A stretch of DNA of 59,410 nt, filler included, from Catajapyx aquilonaris (GCA_000934665.2; 3 parts of 3 records of this genome joined end to end with filler, not necessarily neighbours in it); one strand, 5' to 3'; shown: positions 24,290 through 59,410, counted from the whole stretch's first letter. A program made the numbers and translations. The notes: generated from the sequence alone by a model not told the origin.

Positions 24290-24319
24290 TCATAAGAATG
24301 ATTATGGTAATAACACTAA

Positions 24320-24833: not shown

Positions 24834-24876
24834 TAACTTTGAGATTATCAGTTGTAAAATAATTCATGCATCATTT

Positions 24877-37890: not shown

Positions 37891-38471
37891 CCCTTAGGGC
37901 AAAACATAAGAATTTAAAAAACATTTCATGCCCTCTGCATTTACCCCAGTTTCCAGAAAATTCCGCAATTGACAGGTTTTCGCTACATTCAGTGTCCGTT
38001 ATGGACAGGTGTCACCTCATTACCTTGTAATACATCGACAGAATGCTGGCAGATAAGAGTGGATCTGTATCATTTTCTGCCATTCTCATGCGGTTTTATT
38101 CGACCTTTAGGACATTTCCATGTTTTGAGCCTCGTGGGTTGGCATTCGCCGCTTAACTCCTGACCTGAGGGGGCCGATCAGGTTTAGTCCGGCGGCTTAA
38201 TGCCGATATGTGGTTGAATTATGCACTTCGAGCCAAAAGCGTTTTTAATTTTTTTTCGTGATGTACGCACCATAAGGAGCATTTTGAGGGTTGGAGCCAC
38301 CTCCAAAAGTGTCTGGTAATTGTTGTACACCCCTGCAAAGTTTTATATGTGGCATAAGTGAAAATCTCGTGTTATCTACGTATTTGTTGGGCTACGGTGG
38401 TCATCCTGGTGTCATTTCCCATGTTTTCAGGGTCGAGAACTCAATTCTGGCAAAATCAGGTCGTTATAAGT

Positions 38472-38775
38472 GAAACCTGTCCATAACGGACCCTGAGTGT
38501 AACGGAAACCTGTCCATTCCTAATTTTTTTTAAAAGAACGGACATATATGGACAAGGTCATGCATTCGCGGTATACTCCGTGTCGAATATAGCGGAAACC
38601 TGTCCATAACGGACCCTGAGTGTAACGGAAACCTGTCCATTCCTAATTTTTTAAAAAGATCGGACATATGGACAGGTCATGCATTCGCGGTATACTCCGA
38701 AATGAAAGCGAGTCCAGCCGGAATTTTCCGGAATGGACAGGTTTCCGCTAAATACGTAAACCTGTCCATTCCGGA
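38472..38775. repeat. Tandem ~124-bp duplication of a Tc1/pogo-like terminal region; inverted copy at ~37970-38015
   Basis: GAAACCTGTCCATAACGGACCCTGAGTGTAACGGAAACCTGTCCATTCC occurs at 38472 and 38596. Reverse-complement match GTGTCCGTTATGGACAGG near 37992. Confidence 0.65.
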
Positions 38776-38934
38776 CAGCAAAACAACACAATGACGCCAC
38801 GGAACGACGAAAATCACGAGCCATAATCCTTACACACACTCCTGATTAAGTTTGCATCAGATTCCCTCTACATTGGCTAGAATATGACTTACCATTACAT
38901 ATCACCATCCTTGCTCTCCTGACAACTGCCACAC

Positions 38935-39733
38935 TTACAGAGTGTCGTGCAGGGAACACCAACCCTGAAGCAACCACAGCAACCCTGTGCCGTGAAATGA
39001 CCCTTTTGCGCTTGTGGCTGATGGATTGTGGTCTATGTTGTCTGCTGCAAATGTTGTGAATGCGTTCGTTTGTAATGACCTTGGGCAGACCATGCCAATG
39101 TCTTCGAAATGTTGAATTGCAGAGTTTCCCAAATAAGTGGAAATCGCAAGGACTCTGTCATATGAAATGGAAATCCCAGATTGGCAAAATGTGTCCACCA
39201 TTTCCCTTGACCTGGTCTTACAGTGGATGTAAGAGCCTACAAAAATAGGGAAGGGAGTCTCCTGTAGCGTGCTGTGTCTCTGAATACCACGTTTAGCTTG
39301 TAGCTGCGAGCAAGTGTTATATCCAACAATTTGCGATATGGTGAGAACTGGCTGAGAGTAGCAATCGCCGCCATTATCAATCCTAGGGCCGTTCACTATC
39401 ATCGATACAAGTGTCATAAGAGACTCTGGCACAGATTTCTCTTGGCATTGAAATGAAAATGTACCGTCAAATGGCTAAGAGGTACATTGTAGCAAATCTC
39501 TTCTGACTATCGTAGCCGCTCTAGACGAGACGACGGATTTGTCTTCAGCATCATAATAGCAAGCCTTGCGGAGAGATTGACCGACTGTCTCATCAAGAGC
39601 GAAGAAGACATCTCGGCCATCAGCATGTGCAGAGATGTCTGGAAAATATTTCAAGATCTTGCTTTTGAGACGAGTGGAATGAACCGCTGATACATCACCT
39701 CCAAGAGCACTGATTCGGGTTTCATACAACTGT
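38935..39733 (-). pseudogene. Academ-like DNA transposase remnant
   Basis: ORFs 39475-39729 and 38935-39432 contain HSTRLKSKIL, RHS..QETPFPIFVG, KTRSREMVD, GISISYDRVL, VCP..L...FTTFAADNIDHNPSAT..KGSFHGTG. Truncated by the gap. Confidence 0.6.
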
Positions 39734-39833
39734 NNNNNNNNNNNNNNNNNNNNNNNNNNNNNNNNNNNNNNNNNNNNTTAATTAATTAANNNNNNNNNNN
39801 NNNNNNNNNNNNNNNNNNNNNNNNNNNNNNNNN
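39734..39833. other. Artificial assembly spacer (44 N + TTAATTAATTAA + 44 N)
   Basis: Same linker as at 19662, located at 39778-39789. Confidence 0.95.
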
Positions 39834-40118
39834 CCATTGCGATTCCTATCAATGTATTGAGGTTGTGAGCCAGTTATTACACGGACCGAGCGAAAGCCTG
39901 TTAATCCACCGCGATATCTTGAGCCGTCTAGAGTGGACTTGTAAGCAGTCTTGATTTTTGGACACAGCCCACCAGACGCCTAGTTCCGCTCAATCTGGCC
40001 AGATGGCGATGTCTGTGCATGGCCATTAATGCAGGGTACTGTACGAGCTAGAGGAGCGGGAAAAGATGGCGGATCTGAAAATCAGTTGTTGAGTCACGGA
40101 TATGAGGGGCGAAAAAAG

Positions 40119-40315
40119 ATGGCGGCTGGCAAGCGTGCTGAGGCGCTGATCAACGCTGTCAGGCCGAGAAATGAAATTTGGAACCTCAACTTGCCTGGTC
40201 ACAAGAATACCTACGTCCTCCAAGAGCAATTGGAACCGGGAGCGGCGGAGGTCAACGGAACATGAAACCGGAACAGGAAAAGAAGGGCCAGTGCCAACTC
40301 CACTTGCTACAATGT
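40119..40315 (+). pseudogene. MADF-domain N-terminal fragment fused to a Myb/SANT tail fragment (Harbinger ORF2-type)
   Basis: MAAGKRAEALINAVRPRNEIWNLNLPGHKN matches the MADF pattern LI..V..R..IW. 40244-40316 is a near copy of 57868-57941. Confidence 0.55.
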
Positions 40316-41130
40316 GCAATCCGCGAGCGGCTGATTATTTTCGTAACAATCATTTCGCATCTGCCACCTATCGACAGAGTGGCGGAAAGGCATTTGTCCT
40401 TCCACAGGATGTACGTTGGAATACTATGTCAGACTGCCTACAGTCTTATATACAGAACTGGCCAATTCTACTGAAAGTTTGTGAAGATAATCGAGACAAG
40501 ATTGATTCAAGTATTGCCAACAAAGTCAGAAATGTCTCTCTCAAGCGAAATGCAGAAGACTTATTTGAGAGACTGAAACTTATTGCTGTATCACTAGACA
40601 TAGTACAGAGAGACACATGCACCATTATCAAGCAGTTGATGTCTGGAAAAAACTTCCATGATGATTTACAAGGCATCTGTGACAGAAAGTTGTTGGAAAA
40701 AGTCAAAAATAGGAAAGACGTGGCCTTAACTCCAGCCCACTTACTGGGATATTTGACGGATCCCAAATACGAAGGAAAAGGGTTAACAGTGTCGGAAATT
40801 GATACCGCAATGGACTTTGCTCATACCCGATTTCCAGGCTTTATGCCAACACTGGTTAAGTATAAAGCACACTCGGCCCCATTCTCCAGCTACATGTTTT
40901 CTGATGATGTAATTACCCAAGTGTCAGCCTTAGATTGGTGGAAATCAATTTCTGGGGTGGAGGAGAAAGTCATTGATGTTGCACATCAACTCCACTGTAG
41001 TGTTTCTTCATCTACAGGACTTGAGAGAATGTTCTCCACATTTGGATATGTACATTCAAAAGTGAGAAACAGGCTTGGGATTGAGAAGGCTGCAAAGTTA
41101 GTGTTCAAGACTCTGAATCAAGCACATTGA
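40316..41130 (+). pseudogene. hAT transposase C-terminal fragment with dimerisation domain; element 3' end at ~47990-48067
   Basis: DVRWNT, LTDPKY, LDWWKS and SSSTGLERMFSTFGYVHSKVRNRLGIEKAAKLVF. A TIR-like ...ATTGCCAACCCTG with ATTATT subterminal repeats ends at 48067, beyond the nested insertions. Confidence 0.88.
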
Positions 41131-41253
41131 AAAGTAAACTGACTTCCAGGTTCCACGCGTTCCAGCCCATGAGGTAACAGGAATTATTTGATTCCACTAA
41201 AGAAGTTAGAATGTTGAAAGGCTAAAAAATATCCTACCATAGAACCATAGTAC

Positions 41254-41522
41254 TGTCACGGGCAGTTTTGGGCTGCCCGCCCCTGTTGGTACTCCTGGTC
41301 GGCCGTCCTCCTTGGGGAGCCGCTGTTGGCACCCTGGGGGGGAGGAGGGCGCGGCCAGGAGGGGTAGAGAGGAGGAAGAGCGAGAGTGGGAAGGAGAACG
41401 GACGTGTACAGTGGGTGCTCTGACAGAAATAAAGAGGCAGGAGCCCTACGGAACGTGAGTCTTTGTCATTATTCACTTGGTAGGTCCTGAAGAGGACCGA
41501 GGGAACCCCGCCGCAGGCGAAA
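41254..41522 (+). repeat. 5' LTR (269 bp, TGTCACGG...GCGAAA)
   Basis: Starts TG directly after the TSD, contains AATAAA and ends 1 nt before the PBS. Confidence 0.9.
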
Positions 41523-41523
41523 T

Positions 41524-41541
41524 TGGCGCCCAACGTGGGGC
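41524..41541 (+). promoter_or_regulatory. Primer-binding site for tRNA-Lys(CUU)
   Basis: TGGCGCCCAACGTGGGGC is the complement of the 3' 18 nt of tRNA-Lys(CUU). Confidence 0.9.
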
Positions 41542-41989
41542 CGCAAGTTCAGTCAGAACAAAGCGACCTACGTACCCGCACGCCCTGTTTAGGAGCCTGT
41601 ACGGGTTGGACGGGTCCAGACGCTTACAGCGCCGGGACACAGTGAGGGACCGACCTAACAAGGCCAATACTTCCATTTCCCGCATTGGGGAAGCTCTTTA
41701 ATCAGCGACAAAAAAGAAAATACCCGTTGAAAGAGCGAGATGGAGCGTCCGGGCAACGCCCAAGATGGCCGACGGGAGGAAGCCTCCGAGGCTCCCCCCC
41801 GCCGCACAGCAGATCAGGCAGGGGCTAGGGCTGGCGTTGGATGCCGGCGAGGATGAGGTGGCAAGGGCCGTGGCGGCCATGTTGGCCCGCTTGCCCCCCC
41901 CCCCTCCCACACCACCCCTCCTCCCCCCGCCGACGTCACAGTGGACCACTCCTTAGTGGACCTAGATCCTCCCCGGCCAAGCGACGTCA

Positions 41990-44900
41990 TGAGGCGCCTT
42001 GCTAGACAGCGGCGCCTCGGGCAGCTTTATAGGCGCCGAGGTCATCGGCCTCTGTCTAGAGAAGGGGGAGAAAAGAGCGGGACGGAGGCAACAGTTTGCC
42101 CTGGCTGCAGGACAAGGCCCAGACCACCGGTGTAGTCACTCTGACTGCCGAGTGGAGCGGTAGGAGGCGCAGGCAAGACTTTGTGGTCATGCCCGCTCTG
42201 GAAGAGGCTGTCATCCTTGGTCGCGATTTTTTAAATGGCGCAGAAATCTCCCTCCATTGTTATCAAAATGGATGGACCATGGGCCTGGGAGACAGAACAG
42301 TCAAACCGTTTTATGTGCCGCCAGCAGCTAGGCCTTGCATTGCACGCGTGCAAGACCCCCAATGGCTGAAAGAGGCAGTTGCTCGAACTGAACTCACGCC
42401 GCCCAATAAGGCGCGCCTGCTGCTGTTACTGAACAAGCATGCAAAAATGTTCTCCAAGGCCCCTGGCGACACTAGTGTTTTGCAACACGAAATAGTCACG
42501 CAGGACGAGAGACAGATCATCACTCATCCAAGGCCTGCATCAGCGCGAAAAAAGCAGCTGATGGACGAGCACTTACACGAGTTGCTCGAAAATGGGGTGA
42601 TTGAGAGGGGGGATGAGTTCACGTGGACTCATCCGTATTTTTTTATCCCCAAAAAGCGGCTGGAAAATGATGGCCTCGGAGCCCGAGGAGTCCTTCAGGC
42701 TCATCATCGACCTTCGCAGGTTGAATGAGAAAACGGTCAACCTTGATCCGTTCCCCACTTCTAGAGTGAAGGACGTGATCGACCATTTGAGCGAGAGTCG
42801 ATGGTACTCCACTTTTGACATATCAAGTGCGTACCACTCCGTCGCACTGACGGAGGACTCCGCAAACAAGGTGGGAATATCCACGCATCGAGGAGTTTTT
42901 AAATATAAAAAACTCTGTTTCGGCATGAAAAATGCGGCCCAGGCATTTGCCCAAACGATGCACAGGATTCTGAAGGACAGGCTTTTTGATCATTGCGTCA
43001 TTTACGCGGATGACCTGGTCATATACAGTCCTGATTTCGAATCGCACCTGCGGCACATAGGGGAGGTGCTGGTCACCTTGGAGAAGGCTGGCCTGCACCT
43101 GCACCCTCAGAAGCTGCAGCTTTGCACCGCCACTATAAAGCTGCTGGGGTTTGTCGTTGACAACGGCTTTGTGAAGCCCGACCCTGCTAAAACTGAACCG
43201 CTGGTGAACTATCAGGTGCCAAAGGATCAGAAGGCTGTAATGCGTTTCCTGGGGTATGTGAATTACTTCAGGGATCACATTGACCATATGGCTGGTCGAG
43301 CCCGCAATTTGTACAAATTGCTGCGAAAGGATGCGGTATTCCGGTGGACGGACTTGCATCAGAGTGAATTTGAGGACATTAGGAAGGCCCTGATTCACTG
43401 TACGGAGCTGGCTATGCCGCAAATGGACAAGCCATATGCATTGTTTTGTGATGCAAGCATGTCGGCGGTGGCGTCGGTCCTCATGCAGGAGGACGACCAG
43501 GGCCGTATGGTCCCCCTGTCATATGCCAGCCGGTCCTTGGTCGGTCCGGAGCTCAATTATTCCACCACGGATAGAGAGCTCCTGGCGATTATTTTCGCCC
43601 TAAAGAAGCACGCGCAGTATTTGGAATACGCGCATGTCGTGATCTGGACAGATCACATGGCACTGAAGTTTCGTCAGACCGGCAAGTACCTGTCCAGCCG
43701 CCTGGCGCGCTGGAAGGTCACCCTTGACAGCTTTGATTATTCGATTAAGTATGTCAAGGGTGCTGCCAATGTGGTAGCAGACGCTCTTTCACGGTCACGA
43801 GATGATGGACTGGGGCCAAAAGACGGATGTGCGGAGTGCGAGCACAGTCCTGTCGACCCCCAGTCGACCATCCCCCCCATGGTCCTGGACACTCCTGTGG
43901 TTGAGTGTGGACAAAGTGCACTTACGAATGCCGCAAGCATTCGATGGCCTGACACCCCCCCCCNCTCCCAAGCTCGCCTTGGGAGACGAACCGGAGCTAT
44001 GCTGAGGTGGTGGCCATGACCAAGGGGCCCGTTGTTGCTCATGAGCATGGCGGCCCGGAAGTCAAGTTGATAGTAGGGGAGCGTTCCACTTTGGAAGTCG
44101 AACAGATTGTCCGAGCCCAGTTGGGGGACCCAAGAACGCTAGCTATTCGTGAGTACCTGGAAAAAATGGCTTCCGGGTGCACGAATCTGCCGAAGTTAAG
44201 GGTCAAGGACATAGACTCCTACACTATCAAGAGTAATGGTGTGCTTGTAAAGTACATCGTCCCCAAGAAGGAGCTGGACGAGGAGGAGGCGCGGTACGCT
44301 TTCAAAATCGTAGCTCCACCTTCTATAGTGGCTGATGCAATAAAAATGTACCATGATGACCCTGTCACTGGGGGCCATATGGGCATTTATAAGACGCTAA
44401 AGAAGGTCCAAAAGTTTTTCACCTTTCCTAGGATGAGAAAGATGGTGGCGGACTATGTGAGAAGTTGCTTGATTTGCCAGAAAGTGAAGCCGTCACATTT
44501 GCCACCAGCAGGGGTGTCGGAGACACGGAAAATTCCGGATGCTCCGATGGTGAATTTGTATTGCGACCTTATAGGTCCGTTATGCAGATCACCCAAGGGG
44601 AACACCTACATTTTAGTAGTGTGCGATTACCTCACTAGGTACATATTCGCGAAGCCCCTGCGTTCGGCGAAAGCAGCGCCAATAATCAATGCTTTGGAGG
44701 GCATGTTTTTAGAGCATGGGTACCCCAAGACGCTTTTAGCGGACAATGGAACGCAATTCCAGGCGAAGGCTTTGAGCCAGTACTGTAAAGCCGCAGGAAT
44801 CAAACTGATTTTCAGCCCTATATATCACCCCCAAGCGAATTACACCGAGAGGGCAAATCAGGAGGCCAAGAAGTACCTAAGGGCCATTGTGGAGGTCCAC

Positions 44901-45398
44901 AAGGATTGGGATGCGTTGTTGCCCCAAATGCTCCATGCTCTTAACAACTCAGAGCTGGAGACCACCAAAACGACTCCCAACCATCTGCACTTTGGCCGCA
45001 ATTTGGCCTCTCCTGGAGAATGGGCTTATTTTCCAGAGGAGGGGCTCATCTCGACTCAAGCAGCATATCTGGAGAAGATGCGCAACCGGCGGGAAGCCGT
45101 GCTCGAGTTCGTCACTCACAGCTTGAAGCGCGCACGTGACAAGCACATGAAACGCTTTAACAAAGGCAGAAGGCAGGTGCAATTCACTGCAGGCATGCTA
45201 GTTCTTCGAAAGAACCGGCATTTGTCCTCAGCAGTGAAAGGGGTGGTGCAGTCATTGTTGGCAAAGTACGAAGGGCCTTTCAAGGTCGCAGAGCAAGTGT
45301 CGCCCGTGACCTATCGCCTGTCGTCGTTGGGCGGCAAGGTGGAGAAGGTCTTGACGCACGTGGAAGACCTGAAGAGGTACATAGAGCGAAGGCACTAG
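41990..45398 (+). pseudogene. pol: Gypsy pol (protease, RT, RNase H, integrase) with at least three frameshifts
   Basis: Protease ALLDSGA (~41997) and ILGRDFL. RT: IDLRRLN, FDISSAYH, FGMKNA, YADD. RNase H: CDAS, ELLAI, TDH, ADALSR. Integrase: HD..GH, CLIC, CDLIGP, ADNG, ERAN. Frame changes near 42120, 42600-42700 and 43960. Confidence 0.92.
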
Positions 45399-45403
45399 GG
45401 GGG

Positions 45404-47482
45404 TGCCACGGTTCACCCGCCCTGGCCCAGGGTGGGTAGACCGCCCCTTTTTTCTGCCAAGGGAGAGAGGAGCCATCCCCACCTTTTTCTCTGTGAGGGA
45501 AAAGAGGCGGCGGGCGCCCCTTTTTTTCTCTCTCTCCCTGTGAGGGAAGAGAGGAGCCATCCCCATTTTTTGGCTCTGTGTGGGGAGAAGAGGCACCAGG
45601 CCACTCTTTATTTCTCTGTGAGGGAAAGGAGGTGGCGGGCTCCCCTTTTTTTTCTCTCTCTCTCTCTGTAAGGGGAGAGAGGAGCCACCCCCACCTTTTT
45701 TCTCTGTGAGGGAAAAGAGGCGGCGGGCTCCCTTTTTTTGCTCTCTCTCTGTAAGGGAAAAGAGGAGCCATCCCCACCTTTTTCTCCGGATGAGAAAAGA
45801 GGGGGAGGAGGTGCTCATGCTGCTTCGGTGCTTCTTCGGGAGCGGGGCAGGCCCAGAGAGAGGGCGGGTAGTGGCCCCCCTTTCCCCTCCCCTCCCCGCC
45901 CCCCTGGTTGACGGCCCCTCCGCTGTCTCCCCCCTTTTTTTTTCTTGCTCGGCGGCGGTGGGGGCTGGGGGGGCTGGCTTCCGGGCACCTCGTGGCTGGC
46001 GCGCTCCATGCCACTTTTGGGGGGAGTTTCCTGTTTCCGGTTCTTGAGCCGGTTGACCTCCCCCTCCTCCCTCCCACCCTTTCCCTTTGTGTCATTTTGG
46101 GGGTAGACTGTCTGGAAGGGTTTTTTTCCCGGTCCGTTGGCTCTCGAGTCTGGTCCAGTCAACACACGCCTGTTGGATCTCTGACTTTTTGGTGCGGCCG
46201 TGTGAGTGTGCATCGTCAACCTGCGGACATTTTCGATGGCCCCGCCTGCCCCCCGTCACCAGCAGCGTGGAGCCGGCGCCTCGTCGGCGGCCAGGGGCCA
46301 ACACCGTGGCCGCGGTCGCCGCAGCCGCCCTGGGTCCGCCCGTGGTGGGACGCCCCGCCCACCCGCGTCGGGTCCCGTGAGGTGCTCCAGGGGCACACAG
46401 TTTCCGGCCCCCGTGTTCGCCCCGGAGGTGGACAGGGGTTCGCCGGGGGGCCACATTCACCACGTGGACCACCCGTGGCAGCCTTGGCCGCTGCGGTTCT
46501 GCCCGGGACCACCAAGGGAGCTGGAGGCCAGCCTGGTTCCAGCCATCGGGCCTAACCGGCCCCTCCCTACCCCTCCCTCGGATTGGCACAGGACCCCAGC
46601 GCACCGTCTGGAGGGAGCAAACACGTCTTCGCCCCGGCCGGGGCGATGGTGGCGGCTGTGGGCGGGCCTGTGGCCCCGGACAACGCCTCCCTGCGGGCGG
46701 AGGTCCAGGAGCTGCGGGGGCTGTTGGCGGCCCTCCAGGCCGAGGTCGCTCTTCACCGCGGCCCTGCTGCTGCTGCTGCGCCGGTGGGAGAAGATGGGGC
46801 CGCCCTGGGTGCGGCCGGAGGCGAGGGTGCGCCGGCATCTGATGACGAAGAGGCTGCTGGTGGGGAGGCACCCATGGAGGAGGTGGACGACGCTGAAGAG
46901 GAGGACCTGCTGCTGTAGACTTGATGCCCATTGTTGCAACCCCCCCCCCCCCTTTTGTTGTTTGGATTTCTTGTGTGGGCTTTTGGGGGGTTGCAGTGCA
47001 GGCCTGGCGGGATGCACCGTGTTGTATGCTCCTTCCTGCCATTGTTGTGGCAGTGGGTTCATTGTTTTTGATTTGGGGTTTTTCTGGTGAAGGTTTTTTT
47101 TTAAAAAAAATTTTTAGTTTTTTTTTCTTTATTAGTCGCTTTCTTTTAAATTTTGTTTGTTCGTTGTCATTGTTGTCATTGTGCGCTGAGTGGTGCCGGG
47201 GGGTTGGTGGTCGTTCCCCCTGGTCACTTAGCTGGTGTCCGGGGTGGTTGTCTCCTGGTCGGCCGTCCTCCTTGGGGAGCCGCTGTTGGCACCCTGGGGG
47301 GGAGGAGGGCGCGGCCAGGAGGGGTAGAGAGGAGGAAGAGCGAGAGTGGGAAGGAGAACGGACGTGTACAGTGGGTGCTCTGACAGAAATAAAGAGGCAG
47401 GAGCCCTACGGAACGTGAGTCTTTGTCATTATTCACTTGGTAGGTCCTGAAGAGGACCGAGGGAACCCCGCCGCAGGCGAAA
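45404..47482 (+). repeat. Probable 3' LTR (~2.08 kb) containing a tandem array and a decayed ORF
   Basis: The integrase stop overlaps the PPT AGGGGGG and is followed by TGCCACGG...CCCGCCCTG, resembling the 5' LTR start TGTCACGG...CCCGCC(C)TG. The last 231 bp are identical to the 5' LTR. Confidence 0.65.
45440..45810. repeat. Imperfect tandem array of purine/pyrimidine-tract units
   Basis: GAGGAGCCA(T/C)CCCCA...TTTTTCTCTGTGAGGGAAAAGAGGCGGCGGGC recurs about four times. Confidence 0.85.
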
Positions 47483-47492
47483 GTACCATGTA

Positions 47493-47868
47493 CAGTCAAT
47501 CCTTGTTTAACATCGGGGATGGCTGGATAGGTTCGTGACTTCGTGTAAAGTGAAACATTATTACATTAATCATTTAATCTTATGGGAGTTGGGAAATAGG
47601 GGGATAGGTTCCTGGGGGACCAGGTTCGTCATACATTTATCCTACCAATAATGACAAACTCACCAGTCCAAAAGTTAAAAGTAAAATAGAGTTTAATTAT
47701 CATAATCAGTACATGAGAACATGACAGAGCCACAGAGGTAGTACATCAGGCACTGCTTTCTGCGCAATACAGATACAGTAGTGTACAATAATACCGTAAG
47801 TGTTACAGACTTGTAGTCGGCTAGTCGCTCCCATGTAAGCGGAATCCGTGTTAAACGAGAATTGACTG
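47493..47868. mobile_element. pogo/Tigger-like MITE
   Basis: TA-CAGTCAATCCTTGTTTAAC...GTTAAACGAGAATTGACTG-TA. Confidence 0.8.
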
Positions 47869-48399
47869 TATATTGTATAATGCACTTTCCTTGGAATGTA
47901 ACATGTTTGACAATATTGACATACATTTCTTGATTTTCTTCAAATAGCAGGTGGGGTTTTTATCAGGAAAATGAAATAAAGTGCTGTACTACAAATAATA
48001 ACATTATTATCAAAATAATCCGATTATTTGATTCTTTTAAAATAATAATTGATTATTGCCAACCCTGGCTGTATGTAATAATGGCGGTTGTGGTTTCTTT
48101 GCTCAGGTAGCCTGTCGGGAATTTTCCCTGGCTTACTTTTTCTGGCGTACCTTTTCCTCTACGCACTGTGTCATGTGGTTTTTGTCCGAATTCTCCTTTT
48201 CCGAACTGTGTTACGTTCTGTCATGTAGTTTTCAATCTTTTTGCTTTTTTTCACTTTCTAACGTTTGGACCTCCACATTCTCAACACCCCACCTTTAAGA
48301 TGGGCCCAAAAAACGTAGCAGCATTGACAGTAGCTCATCAGATACACGCAGAGTTCGGCAAAGGAGGGACCAAGAGACTGAGGAAGAACACCAGGGACG

Positions 48400-50020
48400 T
48401 CTCCACTCTATGAGCAGTCTCAGATGTTACAGAGGAAAACAGTAGTATCAGCAGTAATGAAGATGAAAATGCAGATGATGTTAGTCGAGTGGGAGGGTAT
48501 GTTGACTGCGATTATGCGAAGTTGTCAAATATTTGCCGGGAATTGGAAGGGAAGCATAGAGTGCCTAAAGTTGCTATTGACACAGTGGTTAGAAACATAT
48601 CTGAGGTTGTGAAGATGAAGGGATCTAATATCGATGTGTCAATGTTCAGCTGTGACCGAAAGCGAAAGGCTACGTATGAGGAGAGAAGAATTTACATTCC
48701 CCCAGAACAAGTGAAACTCACTAATGGGAAGCGGGCATGCTTTATCCCCTAGAAAAGCTCATCCAATCTGTGCTATGTCACGATGACCTCCTGCCTTATT
48801 TCCAAAAACCCATGGTAAATCCGCAAACAGGATTATTGAGAGATTTTCTTGATGGTAAACGTTTTCAGAGTCACCCAGTTTTCAAAGAGTACAAAGAAAA
48901 CCTAATTGTTATGCTACTGTGCAATGACGACGTTGAGCTCAGCAATCCCTTAGGGATGAAAAGGGGAAGGAGGGGCAAGTTGTGCTTATTTTATGTGTTT
49001 TAAATATCCCAATACAAATGCGATCAAAGTTAAGTCACAGTCATCTCCTTGCTGTCGGGGAGTCATCAGACATGAAAATGTGCCATACGAAAAGGGAGGT
49101 TTTGGCCAATTTTTTTCAAGTGGTACAAAACTTGTCAGCTGAACCAGGCTTAACTTTCAGCACCCCTAAAGGGAGCACCACCTTTCATGGTCTTGTCTTG
49201 GCATATGCAGGGGATGCATTAGCATGCCACAATATTGGTGGCTTCAAAGAATCGTTTGGACCACATGTGAAATTTGGGTGCAGAATGTGCAAAGTAACAA
49301 CGGATGCATCACCAAAGTTGTTTTATCATGGCCAATGCATTTTAAGAAGTCATAATCAATTGCTTGAGCAGGCGAATACTCTAGAAAGTTGTACTACAGG
49401 AGCACAGTATACAGAGCTCTCAAAACAATTTGGACTGAATGGCCCATCACCTTTGAGTGATATCCCTCATTTTAGTCTCATTACTGATCTTTTGTATGAC
49501 CCAATGCACGTGTTGTTGGAAGGTATATGCCCCAAGGAGATCGCTCTTTTTTTGAAGGAAGCAGTAAAGAGGACAGCAGTTCTTAGCAGGGGTACCATTA
49601 ATGAGAGTCTGGATAAATTTAAATTTCACCACTCTAAGTAAGAGTCTGTACCCCCGACATTTTCCATCTGACTTGTCTGTCACAGCATCAGCAAGTTGTT
49701 GCTTAAATTTGCTATTGCATTTGCTGTTCATTTTAGACGACAGTATCCCAGAAATTGCTAGTTGTGAGGACATCATCGAGTCACTTGCCAGCTTATGTCA
49801 AATTGTGCAGATTATGTTGTCACCAGTCATCCTTCCTGAGACTATAGAATTCCTTGAGGATCTAATTGCCTCTCATCAGAAGAAATTTATTACATGTTAT
49901 GGTGAAGAGCAATTCATTCCAAAAATTCATATGCTTGTGCACATGCCCAACAAAATGAAGGAGCATGGACCAGGCCGATCACATTGGACAATGAGACTAG
50001 AAGGAAAAAATGCTCTGGCC
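48400..50020 (+). pseudogene. CACTA/EnSpm-type transposase remnant (several frameshifts)
   Basis: RDFLDG, NDDVELSNPLG, GDALACHNIGGFKESF, CRMC, YDPMHVLLEG, PKIHMLVH and GP...WTMRLEGKN. Confidence 0.78.
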
Positions 50021-50923
50021 AAGACTCCTTTGCCGGAGAGCAGGAGGTCGTTGAGGAAGAAGGCTAAACGGGCTGCGAAGAGGGAGAGAGATGGTCAAGA
50101 CGGCAATTTGGTCAGTAGTGACGAGGTTGGGGACATGGTTTTGTCGGGGATGGCGGAGATTCACCCTGTGGTTGATCTGTCGGAGGAGGAGATTTTGTCC
50201 CACTTGTTGACGTTGACGGGTAAGGCAGAGGGGGCAGTTTCCAGGGTGACAGAGTCGAAGGTGTCGTTCTCCCTGGAAGAGTGGTGGTTTTGGAGGCATT
50301 GGGGGGTATTCGCGACCTGATGTCTGTAATGTTCAGCAGGGTACATGCTGGGGAGAAGCAGTTGGGCTTGGAGAGGTTGGCCCACGTTAATATCTGACTT
50401 AGTCATTGCCTCACAAGCAGACCGAAACAGATCCGGATACCGGACAGTCCGGGAATCCGGATAGATGTTGAAGCACTAGAATTTATGCTGCGAGGCCAGG
50501 ATAACCATAACTATGCCCAATCATTCAATATGACTTTTAAATAATAGTTGAGTGGGGAAGACCCGACCAATATGGCCTTGCACCCCTGCTGGAGCAAAGC
50601 TCCTCAAAAGTCCACAGGAGTTGAGGACCAAGAAGATATATTCAATATGACAGGCAAATATTTAGGCCTGTTTGCAAGCTTGTAAAAACTTTCAAATGCA
50701 AATGGTTGAAAGGGGATAAGCATGCCATGGGGCGCCTGAATATTTTTCAACAACCTAACTCCTTTCGGTCAGTTCTCACAAGCTCGCAAACTCCACTTCA
50801 GGCATGTAATCAACCCATTCTACGCATGTAATTGCATCAAGGTCTCACTACCTTTCCTACACACGTAGAATAGTGAGTCTCTTTAATTTTCACTGTATTT
50901 ATAATCTGATCTATTTTTACAAG

Positions 50924-51469
50924 TGACTGAGATCCGCGGCTGATGGAAAAACCTCCGAGACACCTTTGTCAAGGAGTTCAGAAAGGGGGAAAGTGGGCCG
51001 GCATCAGGGGCTGCTGAAGAAGAGACATATAGGAGCTCCTGGCCTTACTATTCTCCACGGTCTTTTTAAAAGACACCAGACAAAACAGGAAGTACGTTTC
51101 AACCAAAGGAGGCTGCCAACAATACAATATTAACACTTACAATAATAATTTCAGGTCAGGTGGCAATATATGCGGAGCAGAAAAAGGCCTCACAGCGGCA
51201 TGGGGCCAGAGGGCATCAGCCAGATAGAGCCCTGCAATGATGCCTTGACCCCATCTGGCCTGAGAAACCGCAGTGCCAGGAGGTACAAGCTTAATAAAGA
51301 TCTGGCAGCGGTAAACGAGCAGATAAAAGGGTTCCATGAAGACGAACACGAAAAATTTGTGCGGACACTTGTCCCGCACTTGAGGCGGGTGCCTATGCCA
51401 CTACTAGGGCAATGTCAGATTTCTTTGCTGTCAACAGTATACGGCAACACTGTGGTGATGGACGAATAG
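50924..51469 (+). pseudogene. MADF (C-half)-BESS protein remnant, Harbinger ORF2-like
   Basis: acaag| then EIRG*WKNLRDTFVKEFRK...SSWPYY, a probable small intron near 51092-51160, and BESS-like DEHEKFVRTLVPHLRRV....QISLLSTVY. Confidence 0.65.
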
Positions 51470-51849
51470 AAATAAAGGCTGGCTTGTTAACAAATATTTT
51501 TACTTATAGGAGGGCAAGTCAAAAAGTAACCTTAAAATGGCAGTGTAAAACCAACATCGCGTAGTAGACCATTTTCCTGCTAAACGGCAATCATGAGTCC
51601 CTATTTCAACATCCAGGCCATGAGGATGTCCAGTGCGGAGGAGGAATCGCATATGAAGTACTTAAAGCAGCAGCTCCTCGTGGACCACCGTTTGTCTGTA
51701 CCGGTGGACGCTTTTATTCAACTGTTATCAAAATATTTGATAGGGCTTTTGAAACTCAGAATGGCAGTCCCAAGAAGAAGCTAACCAAGGAGAGAGGTCA
51801 CCAATAAGCATTTTAGCAATCAATGCAGCAGGGGATACGAAGGAATTCT

Positions 51850-52062
51850 CAGAAACAGAGGACTGGATTGGAATGTAAAAAAATAAAATAAAAAATATAC
51901 ACTAGAGGGACTTACTTCGACACCAATCAAAACTTGGGACCTTCCATGCCCAGGTGCAGTTAACATTCTGAGCAACGGAAACCAATTGCGCCCTGTATCA
52001 TTGGGAGGGGGAAAAAAGTGATCGCAAAAGATACGTGTAGTTTTGATACACTCTTTCAACTA
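51850..52062 (+). pseudogene. NOF/MULE-like transposase C-terminal fragment
   Basis: NILSNGNQLRPVSLGGGKKVIAKDTCSFDTLFQL. The same L.NGN...TC.FD.LFQ motif occurs at 53.5 and 57.1 kb. Confidence 0.45.
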
Positions 52063-52328
52063 TTCAAAGTGGCCTACACTGACTCTGAACAGCCTATCGT
52101 ATTAGGGACTTCACTATCGTACAACATCGGAAGATTGGTGCCCACGGCCTGCAGTGTATGATCTTGCCGGCGAAAGTGGCCAGACTGCAGGTCAGAGATC
52201 CTAGGGTAGAAAACACTGTAGCTGACCACTTCCGCACTCCTTCCCGAGCCGAGTAAGAGGAAGGTTGTTGAAAACCGAGCTCCAGTCAGATTGCTCAAGG
52301 TCGAAAGAGGAGTCACGCAATCTGACCA

Positions 52329-52897
52329 GATGGCGACGATTGCGGAGATCACGGCCCTCTTACTCGAGGATCGGGCAGATCCGATCGACAATAGAGGATT
52401 CGATCGAGAAGATTGAACGGAACTGGATAGACAAACTAGGGGTCAATCCAGGAAGCAGTGACAGCAGGTGCCGAGGTCACAACGGCGCTGGTAAGCCAGA
52501 ATCGAGAACTGGTGGACAAGCTGGGACAGATGGAGCAGAAACTAGAAGCTTTGGAGAATCAAAGTAGACGAAATAACCTCCTCATCTATGGGATGTACGA
52601 GAAGGAACCGGAGCAATGGGCCGACACCGAGAACATAGTTAGAGACTTTCTAAACAGGTACGCCATGCACCCGGGCCCATATAACGTCCAGATTGAGAGG
52701 GCGCACCGAATTGGAGCCAGGAGAGGCAATAGACCAATAATAGTCAAATGGCTTCGATTTGGGGATAAGCAGATGATACAAGCAAAGGGGGGGCTGCTAA
52801 AGGAGACGGGTTTCCGTTTGGGTGAAGATTATGCATATGCCACTAGGGAGAAGAGGCGAAAGCTGGCTCCCTACCTGATGGAAGCCAGAGAAAGGGG
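52329..52897 (+). pseudogene. LINE ORF1 fragment (L1/CR1/L2-type, coiled coil plus RRM)
   Basis: LENQSRRNNLLIYG, IERAHRIG, RPIIVKW and GEDY...REKRRKL, cut abruptly at EARERG. Confidence 0.8.
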
Positions 52898-53210
52898 GTC
52901 GGCTATTCAACGAAAACCAGGAAATGCCGAAAATGCGACAGAGGAGTTCCAGCGGACCAGCATGAGTGCCAAGGCGTATTCCGTGGAAGTGCCAAGTCCA
53001 TGGAACCAGCTGCTGCAGTGGAACTAATGACTTCTGAAAATGCTGCGTTGGATGAAGCAAACATCAGGGTTGCAGTGGTTAGAGGTGATGATGACAGCTC
53101 AACCATTTCGGCAGTGAGGAGCAGAAGTCAAGAGCCAGTAATCAAGTGGTCTGACCTCAATCATGTAAAATAAGGCTTGAGCAATTTCTTATGGACCCTC
53201 AAGGCCAAGT
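52898..53210 (+). pseudogene. Kolobok/Mutator-like DDE transposase fragment (not in the ORF track frame)
   Basis: Manual translation from 52898: VGYSTKTRKCRKCDRGVPADQHECQGVFRGSAKSMEPAAAVELM...VRGDDDSSTISAV...KWSDLNHVK*. Confidence 0.7.
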
Positions 53211-53274
53211 ATGACATTATAGATGCGAGGGCATCGACAGGCTCAAAGCACTTGTAGCTAACACCTCTACTGCA

Positions 53275-53780
53275 ATGGATGAGATTGAAGCCACTTTGGA
53301 TGTTCCTGAAACCCAAAATATTTCCAGCGACCAGGATTATCTGTGCGGAAAAGGAGCGCGATCAGGACAACATGGCAGTGGAAAATTGGGGAGGGAAAAT
53401 CTCTTCATATACAGAGAATCGGGGAACTTATTTTTCATTCCAGATCAGACTTCGTTACACAAACATCTCAGAAACTGAGCCTTTTGCGCAACGGAAACCA
53501 ACTGTCATCCCTTCCAATGAAAGGAAAAAAAAAGTTGTGGAAAATAACGTGCACATTCGACTCTCTATTCCAAATTTTTCAGAGTGGCACACACAGATTC
53601 AAATGATTTGCGTCAATGGGAAAAGGATGGTTGACATTTCTTCGCATTTTTCACTTTGTCTCAAATTCAGACAGTATGACAAGCCAGCAAGCCTACAAGA
53701 GAAGAGCGCTTGTCATAATAGAGAAATTTCCGGAATTGAGGGTAGCATACGGACCTCGCCAGGAGATCATGTCATATGAC
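53275..53780 (+). pseudogene. NOF/MULE-like fragment; 53437-53780 duplicated at 57087-57428
   Basis: ENWGGK, LLRNGNQL and CTFDSLFQIF motifs, plus a clear nucleotide duplicate downstream. Confidence 0.5.
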
Positions 53781-54319
53781 TGTAAGTAACAAATAATAGT
53801 GAAACGGGCATTTTCCTACTTGACACGTCTAATAGAGTCATTAATGATCATCTAGGTTTCATGCCAGTACATGCCATGGCTCAGAAGATCACGGAAATCC
53901 CGCTTGGCTTCCTTCGGAAGTGTCGCAGTGTCCACTGCCCTGAGCTAGAAAGATCGCTGTGGCAAAGTTTTATAAATGTTAGGTAAGTGAAATTTTGCAA
54001 TTTCTTTTACCCAATCTGACGAATAAAGTGGGTCGTGAAAAACATACGGTACTGCAAAAGTTTAGTAGTTAGTATATAATATTATTACCCTTATCGTTAA
54101 TTGCATCTAGATCATCCTGTTTCATCATCATGTTTCTCGAGCATCATGTTTGGTTTATCAAGTTTCAATATTGCCCAGGGCGATTAATTTGATGATTCGT
54201 GGTATGATGGTGTCCCCTCGACTTCTACCTAAATTTTTGATCAAGATTTTTATGTAATCAAACTTTTGAAATGCCCTACTTCTTTTTATGAAAACAATAT
54301 TACAGTCATAAGACTCCTA

Positions 54320-54383
54320 ATCCCCGTCCCGTTTTTGCCATACAAGTGTCCCGTTTTTGGTTCAAGGAGATATGGTCAGCCTA
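54320..54383. mobile_element. hAT (Blackjack-like) element terminus
   Basis: GTCCCGTTTTTG twice, then ATATGGTCAGCCTA (reverse complement TAGGCTGACCATAT). Confidence 0.55.
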
Positions 54384-54435
54384 CATAAGCGCAAATTGGA
54401 GCAGGTTATGAGTGTAGCTCAGAGTTGCATGTTTC

Positions 54436-54747
54436 TTTCTCCCATCTTATGCCCTTGAAGAAATAGTGGTCTCTGAGGAGCACAATCCAGACCAACAGCT
54501 ACAACAACCGAAAAAAACATTCTCTGTGAATTTCAGAACAAAAACTTGCACTGAACTGACTTTGCCAAATGTGAACATCAGAGGCGTTAGTGTCTTCATG
54601 AGTCTTGCACCAGAAGAATGGGCCAATGATCATCATTTCCAGGTTACGCTGGAGAACAAGCAAACCGATGCTGTGACCAACAGGGAGGAGGAGGAGTGGA
54701 AGAAGTTAGAAGAGGAGTTTAATGCCAGCCAGCTCCGCCAACAAGCC
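54436..54747 (+). repeat. Duplicate of 58429-58746, including a Myb/SANT-like fragment
   Basis: Shared nucleotide sequence; encodes LENKQTDAVTNREEEEWKKLEEEFNA. Confidence 0.75.
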
Positions 54748-55369
54748 ACATCCAGCAGCACCTCAACAGGCCACCCACTGTCCCCACAAAAAGGGTCTGC
54801 CATAAAAGGTAACAAATGTTAATATTTGCACCTGATCAGTTTTTAAGTTTTGCTTCATGCCATGACTGCTGATTCAAGTGCCTAGAATTTAGCCTGCATG
54901 TTATGTCAGGCTTTGCAGGAATCAGGATACAAGCATTGTTCATTAATTCAGTATCGGTATTTATTGCTGCGTAAAAAAGGCCATGCAGAAATCATTTTGG
55001 TCACTCATTGTTGTGCAAGTAATTGGAGTTGAACCCATCGATAAAATTTTCTGTCGATGTTATGTAGTATAATATTATGTAATTATCTTCATGCAGATTG
55101 CCTCATCAAGAGACGCGAGGCCAATGGTGAGAAGCGGGATGCCAAATTTGAGACAAAGGCAAGTCGGGACACAAACTACTACCTGGCCCAAAAAATAAAA
55201 ACCTTGAAGGCGCTGTCCAAGAAAAATCTTGTGCAATCAACTGTCACCCATGAACTGTGTAATATTAATTAACACCAGCCCAGGAGGATTCTCATGGATG
55301 GTCCACATATGTCCACGAGGATGGTCCACATAGATCCAAACATCGTGTGCATCGAAATCAGGAAAAGTA

Positions 55370-55685
55370 GAGAAGAAGTTGCATACGGCCTGGTTTCAAG
55401 ATGTCAACGTCCCTAATGTTCCTCAAAGAAGTGCGCTATTACTCGACTCATTCTCCACACACAACAATCTGACACTTGCTGTACCTGTTGATAACGAGAA
55501 AGGTGTGAAAACACTTTTCATTCCAGAAAATACGACCCATCTAATACAGCCACTAGACGTGCACTTTTTTTTTCGAATGTCGAAGAACTTTGTACGGAGA
55601 GTGTCAGATAGAGTTCTGTTGGATAATTTGGACGATCAGTTGTTCCCGAGAGACAACATATTAAAAATTCACTCACTGATTCACT
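55370..55685 (+). pseudogene. pogo-like DDE transposase C-terminal fragment
   Basis: LLLDSFSTH, IPENTTHLIQPLDVHFF and KNFVRRVSD. Confidence 0.7.
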
Positions 55686-55849
55686 GTGACATTATTCCAG
55701 CACCATGGCACACATGGATCAGGTGTGTGGAATGGGGGATCCATGGTGGCGCGAGGCCAACTGGATCAGGTTCAACTCATCTCGCAGGAGTGAACTCGTA
55801 GCCTCAAAGCAAGAGAAAGAGGCACTCCGACTACAGAAAAGAATAACTA

Positions 55850-56110
55850 TCCTCGAGACCTAGTGAACGTTCCAAGCCACGCTTTCGGAGCACACGACAG
55901 CTGCGCACCATACTTTAGTGCGAAGTGCAACATTTCTCAAGCTAACCAGGTTCCAGAGATGAAGCAAGATGACCGGTGGAATGATATTCAGAAGCTAGCG
56001 GGGAACCTGGCAAGTCACTCACGTAGTCTGATACAGCTTGTAAAAAAAAAACAATCCGTGCGAGGTTCTCAACAACGTCACTGCCATGTTCCTGAACGGA
56101 AAGCGAATGA
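55850..56110 (+). pseudogene. Kolobok/Mutator-like transposase fragment
   Basis: DLVNVPSHAFGAHDSCAPYF matches the pattern N.P.H.FG.H..C..YF. Confidence 0.5.
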
Positions 56111-56159
56111 ATAGGGGGGACAGTTTGACTTGCGGGCTTCGTGCACTGTGAAGTGGAAC

Positions 56160-56866
56160 GCTGCGATTTGTTCCATTTTGTACAGAGGTGTGAGCAATTG
56201 TATGGGATCACGAATATGAGGTTTAACGTTCACATCCTACTTCATCTGTCACGAGCTGTCCAATTTTATGGCCCCCTCTGAGTTTTCTCAGCTTTTCCAT
56301 TTGAGGCCAATAATGGTGTATTGTTGAAATACGTGAAGGGCACAAAGAGTGTTATCCCACAAATTGTGACAAGATTTCTCACAAAAATGTCCCTACGTGG
56401 CATGGCAAAAACGTATGGATCCTCAAGTGACTTTTTGGCAACTTTTTCAACGCAGCACACTCCCATGATTGATCGTGAAATGATAAATGGGTCAGTATTT
56501 GGTTCCTGTGAAAGGATTAGAATGAGTGACCTAGCTGATGACAGGCTGCAGGCTGCAACACAGGGAGTTTTAGGTCATGGTTATGGGTTTTTCACAACCT
56601 ATTCTGCTGCCAAAGTTAGGGGCCATACCTACCACCCAACAAGTTATACTCGTTCAAAAAGGTGCTGTGATGCTATTGTGCAATATTCAGGTGAGGAGAT
56701 TGGTGAAATTCTATACATTATGTCAAAAGCCGGTGACGATGGCAATAAGGGAAAATGTTATTTTTTGCTCAAGAAGATACACACACTGCTGATGAATAAC
56801 TCAATAAGTGGCATGCCCGAAGCTCATGCACTGATCAATGTGCTCAATGAAAGTGCATGCATGTGA
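56160..56866 (+). pseudogene. Second CACTA/EnSpm-type transposase fragment
   Basis: LYG..NMRFNVHILLHLSRAVQFYGPL*VFSAFPFEANNGVLLKYVKGT. Confidence 0.7.
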
Positions 56867-57689
56867 AGGTGGTGGTTGGAAGTGGGGTGGGATATGTTGC
56901 AGTCCCTTTCGAAAATGTTCGAAAATGCGTTAGTGGTAAGCCATATTGCAATTCCTTGTTATCTGTTGTTTCACCCATGATGAATAAATATTAGGTAAGT
57001 TATATTCAGCACAGCTAGATATTACTTATGCTCATCAGTCAATATTTGTATATTGACAATCCAATATTTATAGAGATAGAGAAGAGATTCCAGATCAGAC
57101 TTCGTTACACAAACATCTCAGAAACTGAGCCTTTTGCGCAACGGAAACCAACTGTCATCCCTTCGAATGAAAGGGAAAAAAAGTTGTGGAAAATACGTGC
57201 ACATTCGACTCTATTCCAAATTTTTCAGAGCGGCACACACAGATTCAAGTGATTTGCGTCAATGGGAAAAGGATGGTTCCCATTTCTCCGCATTTCTCAC
57301 TTTTGTCTCAAATTCAGACAGTATGACAAGCCAGCAAGCCTACAAGAGAAGAGCGCTCGTCATAATAAAGAAATTTCCGGAATTGAGGGTAGCACACGGA
57401 CCTCGCCAGGAGATCATGTCATATGACTAATATTCGCATGATTATGTAGAAATTCCCACCGAATTTTTGCACCACCCTACAATAAATTTGTACAGGACAT
57501 TCTTTCAGCCGGATAATAAGCAGTCTACAGTAGACCTACGACTAGTGCTCTTTGAAGCATCTCCGATTTCATCTCCTGCTCATGGAGCCCCTGGAGAAGG
57601 GACGGACCAGGAGGAGGGGAATCGCTTCCCTCCGGTCCAATCCAACATGTCAGTTGCCAAGACAGGAGTCTCGGCTGTCTCGCCGAGCA

Positions 57690-58050
57690 TGGCTTCTCCG
57701 GATCCCGCCATGAACACCAAAAGGAAGCGGGTCAGGGGCGCGAACTGGACGTCGGAGGAAGGCTCAACGCTCCTGGACCTTTACGCCGAGCACGTCGGAG
57801 CCATTGAGTCCAAGGTGGCGGACACGCACGCCAACAAGAAGGAGGAGGAAGCATGGAGGGTCAACGACGGAGGTCAACGGAACATGAAACCGGGGCAGGA
57901 AAAGAAGGGCCAGTGCCAACTCCACTTGCTACACAATGTGCGATCCACTCCGCGAGCGGCTGACTGGACACGGACCCACGTCCATGACCGTGGTGGAGAC
58001 CACGGTGTTGGTGACCCTGCACTTCTATGGCACGGGCACCTTTCAGAACG
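57690..58050 (+). pseudogene. Harbinger-derived fragments: Myb/SANT N-terminus followed by nuclease N-terminal motif
   Basis: KRKRVRGANWTSEEGSTLLDLY...IESKVADTHANKKEEEAW, then VLVTLHFYGTGTFQ (HARBI1-like L..L.FY.TG.FQ). Confidence 0.7.
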
Positions 58051-58649
58051 CCAATACATTGTGCAATTACCACCCGCAGTCGCAGGCACGGACAATTGAG
58101 ACCAGGAAAGAAGAACGACCTTGTGCTCATATTAGCTTCAAAGTTGTCAAAGACACTGTGTTAATCCGGGTGAAGGCTACAATGTGGTGCATCTCACGGA
58201 CTTTATGATTACCAAATATGACGGACATGTGCAGGCACGTTTACTGTAATTTCTCATGTGAACGCATGCCAAAACAACAGCTTGCTCGGTTTTTGCCGCG
58301 CCCAAGCACAATTTCAGTGACTGAAATTGAGGAGAATCAACATAAAATTCCTGTGTCAGATATATCGGTGAAGATTTTTACTGATATGGGTGAAAAAAGC
58401 CTTTACTTTAAATACTTGTTGTTGTTTTTTTCTCCCATCTTATGGCCTTGAACTAGAAGAAATAGTGGTCTCTGAGGAGCACAATCCAGGCCAACAGCTA
58501 CAACAACCGAAAAAAACCTACTCTGCGAATTTCATAACAAAAACTTGCACGAAAGTGACCTTGCCAAATGTGAACATCATGAGGCTTGCACCAGAAGAAT
58601 GGGCCAATGATCATCATTTCCTGGTTACCCTTCCAGCACAGAGATGCGC

Positions 58650-58830
58650 TGGAGAACAATCAAACCGATGCTGTGACCAACAGGGAGAAGGAGGAGTGGA
58701 AGAAGTTAGAAGAGGAGTTTAATGCCAGCCAGCTCCGCCAACAAGCGAACCCACCGACAGCTGCGAACTGCATTCGAGAATATGAAAAAGAAGGCAAGGA
58801 AGGAGGTCGGGGACATGCAGCGGGATGAAG
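58650..58830 (+). pseudogene. Myb/SANT-like DNA-binding fragment
   Basis: TDAVTNREKEEWKKLEEEFNA...QLRTAFENMKKKARKEV. Confidence 0.6.
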
Positions 58831-58929
58831 ACGGATGGGGGACAATGCCAGAAGAAGCTGAGCGAGGTGACAGTATACGCCTGCTCAGCCTTCTGGGCAA
58901 GTCACACTGCGCTCGGTGAAACCCGCCCT

Positions 58930-59410
58930 CAAAGAGAAAGTAGCTCTCCTGAAGCATGAGAGGGAGAACGCAAGCAGGTCATTAACAAATATGTCCAGCG
59001 ACAATTTGAAGTCGCCCGGAAAGACGTTAAGATTCTACGGACATCCCATCTACGGGCGCTTAAAAATTTAATGAAGTAGATGATGGCAAGCTCAAGTTCA
59101 GGGCAACACTGGACGTGGGCCATCTAAATAGAAACGAAAGCAATGGCATTCGTGCAAGATTGCAAAGAACAGTTAGGAGAATATGACCCCAAGTCAAATC
59201 TTCAATTCCGACCAAAGCGGCTTCCAGAAAGAGCTACAATCGCGGCGCACATTAGATTTAATAGGCGAGAAAAGGGTCCACAAGAAGGCGCAAAGCATTT
59301 CTGCGATGACACACTCTCACACTATACAACCAACATTGTCGGCGGATGGAGACCTTCTAACGCCACTGTTTGTCATCCTTCAAGAGCAAAAGGGCGAGTT
59401 TGGACCAGTT
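58930..59410 (+). pseudogene. pogo-like DDE transposase N-terminal catalytic fragment (runs off the window)
   Basis: Manual translation IFNSDQSGFQKELQSRRTLDLIGEKRV...THSHTIQPTLSADGDLLTPLFVILQEQKGEFGP. Confidence 0.7.

Follow-up and report, generated by a model that had tools for sequence, protein, structure and literature searches.

In a 59,410-nucleotide stretch of Catajapyx aquilonaris DNA (GCA_000934665.2; the window), the piece at 39834-59410 is a gene-free transposon graveyard of many superfamilies with strict + polarity. Pfam scans of both strands and homology searches support nine distinct stretches of transposon coding sequence there, drawn from at least seven superfamilies: hAT, Ty3/Gypsy, two CACTA/EnSpm-like pieces, MADF, L1 ORF1, Mutator, pogo DDE_1 and Myb_DNA-bind_5. 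Each of the nine is on the + strand, and − carries no such piece. Since at least seven superfamilies are mixed, the piece is not one element. The co-orientation of these remnants is real, and the statement of a first-pass annotation of this DNA that every orientable coding fragment is on + is borne out for the supported pieces. The same annotation named comparable − strand transposon fragments as what would count against its reading, and the searches of both strands found none. We tentatively regard the piece as a candidate one-strand source of PIWI-interacting RNAs (piRNAs) with a − strand precursor, a known kind of locus; this reading appears to us a serious possibility and a reasonable interpretation of the sequence. 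The nine pieces are:

40150-41127, +: C-terminal half of a hAT transposase in an unbroken 326-residue frame; Dimer_Tnp_hAT, E 1.2e-5, 25.4 bits (cut-off 21.4)
41292-47482, +: full-length Ty3/Gypsy long terminal repeat (LTR) retrotransposon, from its LTRs and Pfam domains
48363-50026, +: CACTA/KDZ-like transposase fragment with three frame changes (four frames), truncated at both ends
50920-51066, +: C-terminal half of a MADF domain; MADF_DNA_bdg, E 5.9e-5, 23.8 bits (cut-off 22), profile positions 41-83 of 84
52482-52922, +: L1-type ORF1p fragment with the end of the coiled coil, the RRM and part of the C-terminal domain; limits from tblastn
52892-53209, +: internal fragment of a Mutator-like transposase; PF20700, E 1.3e-14 (2.3e-14 in the six-frame scan), profile positions 184-293 of 357
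55352-55627, +: internal fragment of a pogo/Tigger-type DDE_1 transposase; PF03184, E 1.5e-10 (3.3e-9 in the six-frame scan), profile positions 48-142 of 177
56111-56887, +: C-terminal fragment of a second, distinct CACTA/EnSpm (TNP2) transposase, without the catalytic Transposase_21 part
57734-57859, +: first half of a Myb_DNA-bind_5 domain; PF13873, E 1.9e-5 (2.3e-8 for the whole frame in the six-frame scan), profile positions 1-42 of 78

The polarity was seen in three Pfam scans that treated both strands alike. A stop-to-stop scan covered 140 frames of at least 60 residues (74 on +, 66 on −) and gave transposon-family matches on seven frames, all on +:

40150-41127, +: hAT dimerisation domain
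42601-44016, +: RVT_1 and RNase H
43953-45395, +: integrase
52847-53170, +: Mutator
55334-55798, +: DDE_1
57431-58096, +: Myb_DNA-bind_5
58583-58825, +: weak Myb_DNA-bind_5 (E 0.0018, below the cut-off)

The 66 − frames yielded only two matches, both below the cut-off and neither to a transposon family (zf-NF-X1, E 0.0078; RLIP76, E 0.0093); one + frame gave a similarly sub-threshold match to TPR_TmcB. Among 142 shorter frames of 35-59 residues outside the Gypsy element (56 on +, 86 on −), the MADF domain was recovered on + at 50944-51066, together with a sub-cut-off GPCR match, also on +, and none of the 86 − frames matched. The third scan read all six frames with stops replaced by X over 39834-41293 and 47483-59410, that is, over the piece minus the Gypsy element. 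On + it returned hAT, MADF (50920-51066, E 1.3e-4), Mutator, DDE_1 and Myb_DNA-bind_5, so that the hAT match was recovered here as well; none of the 15 − frames matched. Finally, tblastn of 150 CACTA relatives against the whole window gave hits on the + strand only, at 48.5-50.0 kb and at 56111-56887.

Tests that make no use of annotation point the same way. In 47483-59410 the + strand holds 30 open frames of at least 75 residues (3621 residues in all) against 8.2 ± 2.4 in block shuffles, while the 16 such frames on − show no excess over the 14.0 ± 3.3 of the shuffles. Frames of at least 100 residues number 17 on + versus 5 on −, and frames of at least 75 residues cover 70% of this interval on + and 30% on −. 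Control regions of the window are balanced, with 34 versus 40 frames of at least 75 residues in 1-19617 and 9 versus 9 in 32100-39733. All five repeat pairs within the piece, one of them the LTR pair, are direct; in the left 39.7 kb of the window, direct and inverted pairs are both present. The first-pass annotation had counted about 12 independent pieces and put the chance of their agreement at 0.0005. With the nine supported pieces the two-sided chance, if they are independent, is 2 x 0.5^9 = 0.004; four further same-orientation outcomes among repeat copies, which are not fully independent, would make it lower still. As evidence for the polarity, the excess of open frames carries more weight than this p-value.

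The youngest insertion, the Gypsy element, shares the + polarity. It had been listed as a fragment and is in fact complete, with two LTRs of 231 bp each (41292-41522 and 47252-47482) that are 100% identical; the insertion is recent. The 4-bp sequence GTAC is found at both 41289-41292 and 47483-47486 and may be a target duplication. Between the direct LTRs, Pfam finds RVT_1 (E 1.3e-24), RT_RNaseH (1.8e-30), Integrase_H2C2 (1.6e-19) and rve (3.5e-11), and this order of reverse transcriptase, RNase H and integrase is that of a full-length Ty3/Gypsy element. It is nearly but not fully intact: its coding region contains an in-frame stop (41699-41701) and shifts frame across 42060-42728, 42601-44019 and 43953-45398, leaving the pol domains spread over three reading frames, and position 43964 is an N. 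With 6.2 kb, about 32% of the piece, it is the largest single component by length. After the integrase, 45400-47250 is a 1.8-kb GC-rich segment (54-56%) with tandem repeats of 83-128 bp at 45460-45802, and these are the only tandem repeats of the piece. This 3' part carries long low-complexity frames on both strands, 46095-47405 on − (437 residues) and 46206-47087 on + (294 residues). Neither has a Pfam match; one of them might be a third gene of the element.

Directly after the 3' LTR follows a second element with terminal repeats, resembling a miniature inverted-repeat transposable element (MITE):

47484-47877, no strand assigned: MITE-like element with 29-nt terminal inverted repeats

Its arms, 47484-47512 and 47849-47877, are 86% complementary. 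Besides this pair, only pairs of 14-25 nt were found in the search for terminal inverted repeats around the fragments.

The remaining supported pieces are truncated. The CACTA/KDZ-like piece at 48363-50026 corresponds in the tblastn map to residues ~49-555 of arthropod relatives of 738 residues. It has 15 longer relatives (best E 2e-58, 47% identity), the best of which come from ants, a spider and ticks, and in most of them the homology stops sharply at 50026. DUF4218 was seen in four of eight tested relatives, weakly and below the cut-off, and among the look-alikes of the piece in the atlas are Transposase_21 and Plavaka clusters (scores 0.94-0.96), which serve as leads only. For the second CACTA piece, at 56111-56887, 3425 relatives were found at E <= 1e-3, of which 204 reach E <= 1e-10; the piece aligns to residues ~450-800 of relatives that are 700-900 residues long. 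Of 16 long relatives, 13 carry Transposase_21 at E < 1e-3 (six of them reach the Pfam cut-off) and six have DUF4218 at the matched part, so that this piece shows the homology to proteins with Transposase_21 and DUF4218 by which CACTA/EnSpm (TNP2) elements are recognized. For the L1-type piece, the search region 52440-53024 (+) gave seven relatives, and a profile built from the piece and these relatives matches human LINE-1 ORF1p (2ykp) with E 5.2e-13 over profile positions 16-170. The L1 piece, which ends at 52898-52922, meets the Mutator piece, which starts at 52892, without any spacer, and from 50.3 kb to the window end the DNA is a fine mosaic of short pieces.

Three repeat families are interleaved with the coding fragments, and two further frames belong to the same inventory:

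53437-53781, +: 345-bp repeat, copy A, direct and 95% identical to copy B
57087-57428, +: 345-bp repeat, copy B, direct
51966-52085, +: old partial copy of the 345-bp repeat, 67% identity (blastn, alignment)
54430-54763, +: ~325-bp repeat, copy A, 82% identical to copy B and in frame like the first half of Myb_DNA-bind_5
58423-58762, +: ~325-bp repeat, copy B, with the weak Myb_DNA-bind_5 match (PF13873, E 0.0018, below the cut-off)
40243-40334 and 57865-57963, +: 92-99-bp shared piece, direct, 89% identity
39984-40334, +: possible MADF/Myb-like remnant, whose final 92 bp are the shared piece 40243-40334; the domain label is that of the first-pass annotation and is without Pfam support
59177-59410, +: open frame running off the window end, earlier labelled pogo-like; no Pfam match, label unverified

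In the alignment, copies A and B of the 345-bp repeat share the same ends. The flanks of copy A, a pyrimidine tract ending in AG that looks like a splice acceptor and a GTAAGT that looks like a donor, would suit an exon in a transposon gene. The copy of the 92-99-bp piece at 57865-57963 follows the Myb_DNA-bind_5 half-domain. Its neighbours there, this half-domain and a frame that had been labelled Harbinger, differ from those of the other copy, a MADF-like frame and hAT; because the same piece of ~95 bp occurs between different neighbours, the mosaic must be very fine-grained. A segmental duplication, which we also considered as an origin for the repeated order, is ruled out, since the sequences that separate the members of the pairs show no relation to one another.

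Of the 17 sites labelled by the first-pass annotation, seven were left without support from our tools. The labels MADF at 40119, BESS, Kolobok-like at 55850, pogo at 58930 and Harbinger at 57985 could not be substantiated, as the frames 39984-40262, 51149-51466, 54418-54819, 55794-56111, 57888-58205 and 59177-59410 gave no meaningful Pfam match even at E <= 10; to the eye, several of these sites do resemble the labelled families in their motifs. The three sites called NOF-like turned out to be a genuine repeat family, the 345-bp repeat. No protein relative was found for it (for the frame 57080-57427, none of 112 longer candidate proteins reached E <= 1e-3), and we have dropped the label. The Myb assignment at 54650 stands only through the 82% DNA identity of this repeat copy to the weak match at 58650, copy A (54430-54763) having no Pfam match of its own.

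The piece is 19.6 kb long, free of gaps, and lies to the right of two blocks of 44 Ns (39734-39777 and 39790-39833). As had been claimed, it holds no host gene: neither the stop-to-stop nor the six-frame Pfam scans found a host-gene domain on either strand. Rfam (no match) and a tRNA scan (no gene) gave no sign of a short interspersed element head or an RNA gene in it. Host genes are found in the left part of the window, on the − strand, by a Pfam scan of 150 of the 159 frames of at least 72 residues in 1-39833; the nine omitted frames are 1-228, four near single Ns and four at 37.9-39.5 kb. The two that can be identified are:

22755-25752, −: CEP76 (CEP76_C and CEP76 peptidase-like domains)
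29786-32030, −: double AAA ATPase, with p97/VCP and AFG2 as nearest solved relatives

The ATPase includes an uninterrupted 465-residue frame (30636-32030) in GC-rich surroundings (53%). A six-frame Pfam scan of 36861-39733, which includes 37.9-39.5 kb, had no match. Beside the CEP76 exons, 850 bp at 21489-22337 form a long foldback or palindrome, being 92% identical to their own reverse complement, and 24877-25024 holds a smaller one. Two short tandem duplications with units of ~110 bp, 37631-37890 and 38472-38699 (80% and 94% identity), are found in the interval that separates the host genes from the gap. Directly left of the gap, an open frame of 179 residues at 38938-39474 (−) runs against the direction of the array. 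It matched neither Pfam, nor the PDB, nor the collected CACTA relatives, nor a sequence index; to the eye it looks transposase-like. If this frame is a transposon remnant, the polarity would stop at the gap.

Strict polarity across unrelated superfamilies, which includes the youngest insertion, would be explained most simply by an orientation filter over the whole region, in the form of one-direction transcription, and one-strand piRNA clusters are the known systems in which such a filter acts. Flamenco-like clusters are nominated from sequence by a pronounced strand bias and then confirmed with small RNAs, as van Lopik et al. (2023; PMC10643416) describe, and the remnants in 39834-59410 display such a bias. 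On this reading, the locus was built by ordinary insertions, of which the complete Gypsy element with its identical LTRs and possible target duplication is the latest. Deletions in the dense pile may then have joined the inside of one element to another with the orientation kept, and the short internal fragments with seamless junctions would be the product of such deletions. The region would lie within one long − strand transcription unit in which only antisense insertions persist, and the − strand precursor, presumed to start beyond 59410, would be cut into 1U-biased piRNAs of 24-31 nt antisense to the messengers of hAT, CACTA, Mutator, pogo, L1 and Gypsy elements. Transcription, its direction and the production of piRNAs are what we infer here; orientation data alone cannot tell which strand is transcribed, or whether either is.

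Several observations weigh against this reading. Only 19.6 kb are visible between the assembly gap and the window end, and the flamenco-like loci described by van Lopik et al. measure 227-1085 kb; in their account, moreover, Gypsy-family elements alone drive the strand bias there. The flamenco-like layout proposed in the first-pass annotation holds as far as the gene-free pile of many superfamilies and its strict + polarity are concerned. The enrichment in Gypsy elements that defines flamenco-like loci is absent, one Gypsy element standing beside eight other supported pieces. Nor is complete purity general for one-strand clusters, as in those of Trichoplusia ni only 57.1% of insertions are given as antisense (PMC5844692). 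Within the piece, long-frame coverage is balanced in the bin 50001-52500 (0.46 on +, 0.54 on −), where several − frames, none with a Pfam match, oppose long + frames. The motif AATAAA is not depleted on the − strand, with 3 occurrences versus 4.4 expected in 47483-59410 and 5 versus 5.3 in the whole piece, a test that is uninformative. As about 700 windows of the genome were screened, a p of 0.004 is expected a few times by chance, and the single-locus value is suggestive, not overwhelming. It is also uncertain how far the pieces are independent, since several of them are copies of shared repeats, and pieces that adjoin with no spacer between them may have been moved or duplicated as a unit.

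On these last points rests the possibility, which we think rather improbable though worth keeping in mind, that the polarity is the outcome of a neutral history, in which a few independent events, such as the insertion or duplication of composite blocks, produced a chance run that was then picked from hundreds of windows. Several pieces are indeed copies of the same three repeat families, fragments such as L1 ORF1 and Mutator abut without spacers, only nine pieces have tool support, and ~700 windows of the genome were screened. Against such a history stand the nine pieces from at least seven unrelated superfamilies, among which the Gypsy element is demonstrably separate and recent, the unrelated DNA between the paired repeats, which leaves no simple segmental duplication, and the lack of an open-frame excess on −. 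The main rival places the piece in an ordinary host transcription unit, as part of a long intron, an untranslated region or a non-coding RNA gene, from which insertions in the disruptive orientation were purged by selection, and gives it no piRNA function. This would fit the same polarity data, and − strand transcription is plausible given that both identifiable host genes, CEP76 and the p97/AFG2-type AAA ATPase, are on −. The link to these genes, however, crosses the two 44-N gaps, so that their relative orientation rests on scaffolding alone, and both strands of the piece, like 36861-39733, lack any exon-like host domain in the Pfam scans. A further point against a host unit is that introns bias the orientation of insertions only moderately, with little effect on cut-and-paste elements, which make up most of the pieces here; on balance we judge such a unit unlikely.

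The polarity might also come from directional capture, in which a copying process, by template switching of a reverse transcriptase or by Helitron-like transduplication, joined coding pieces in a fixed orientation, with no part played by independent insertion and later selection. Short stretches of 100-800 bp from inside coding regions that are joined seamlessly, + frames that cover 70% of 47483-59410, a 92-99-bp piece that recurs between different neighbours and two repeat families with identical ends in both copies would all suit such a process. Yet deletions in a dense pile yield the same junctions, and the Gypsy and MITE-like elements are ordinary DNA-level insertions with terminal repeats. 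Pfam and repeat searches found no Helitron helicase, LTR pair or poly(A) tract framing the array, and no second copy of the mosaic was found within the window or in a sequence index queried with 53389-53781 and 48937-49638. Nothing requires such a process, and we consider it highly improbable. Just as far-fetched is an array that is no passive graveyard but was built by capture as a dedicated locus, in which pieces of transposon messengers or genes would be joined head to tail as an acquisition step of piRNA memory, with a logic like that of spacer uptake.

If small RNAs confirm the one-strand piRNA reading, an architecture of the flamenco type with near-complete antisense polarity would exist outside Drosophila, and it would serve against cut-and-paste transposons (CACTA, hAT, Mutator and pogo) as well as retroelements. 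Polarity of this kind would then also offer a way of nominating piRNA source loci, by sequence alone, in genomes that lack RNA data. Should no piRNAs arise from the locus, its strict polarity would still need explaining, as we know of no ordinary intronic bias that reaches such completeness. The antisense bias of insertions in host introns resembles the present case in that one-direction transcription filters insertions by orientation. That bias is of moderate degree and affects chiefly LTR and LINE elements; a further difference is that neither in the piece nor next to it did a host exon turn up.

With flamenco and the flamenco-like loci of Drosophila, the piece shares a gene-poor pile of remnants, near-complete polarity and a recent Gypsy-type insertion of the same polarity. 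It differs from the flamenco-like loci, as far as they are described in PMC10643416, in its single Gypsy element, in the 19.6 kb that are visible and in its mostly cut-and-paste pieces (hAT, CACTA, Mutator, pogo) with one L1; the present locus is known from DNA alone, while for the Drosophila loci one-strand piRNAs and expression in follicle cells were shown by sequencing (PMC10643416). The first-pass annotation had made more of this contrast, describing the locus as dominated by DNA transposons. That was overstated, since the 6.2-kb Gypsy element makes up about a third of the piece, MADF and Myb domains are not specific to DNA transposons, and one-strand clusters of mixed content are already known outside Drosophila. 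In the ovary of T. ni, according to the data reported by Fu et al. (2018; PMC5844692), 286 of 348 piRNA loci are one-strand, and for Aedes albopictus the one-strand clusters are described as the most highly expressed (10.1101/2024.08.15.608080). The clusters of both species were defined from small-RNA reads, in contrast to the locus described here. In the one-strand clusters of T. ni, 57.1% of insertions and 79.7% of transposon nucleotides are reported as antisense (PMC5844692), compared with nine of nine supported pieces on one strand in C. aquilonaris. In mixed transposon content, however, the piece resembles the T. ni and Aedes clusters, which, in the accounts available, are transcribed from one strand with their transposons preferentially opposite to the precursor (PMC5844692; 10.1101/2024.08.15.608080).

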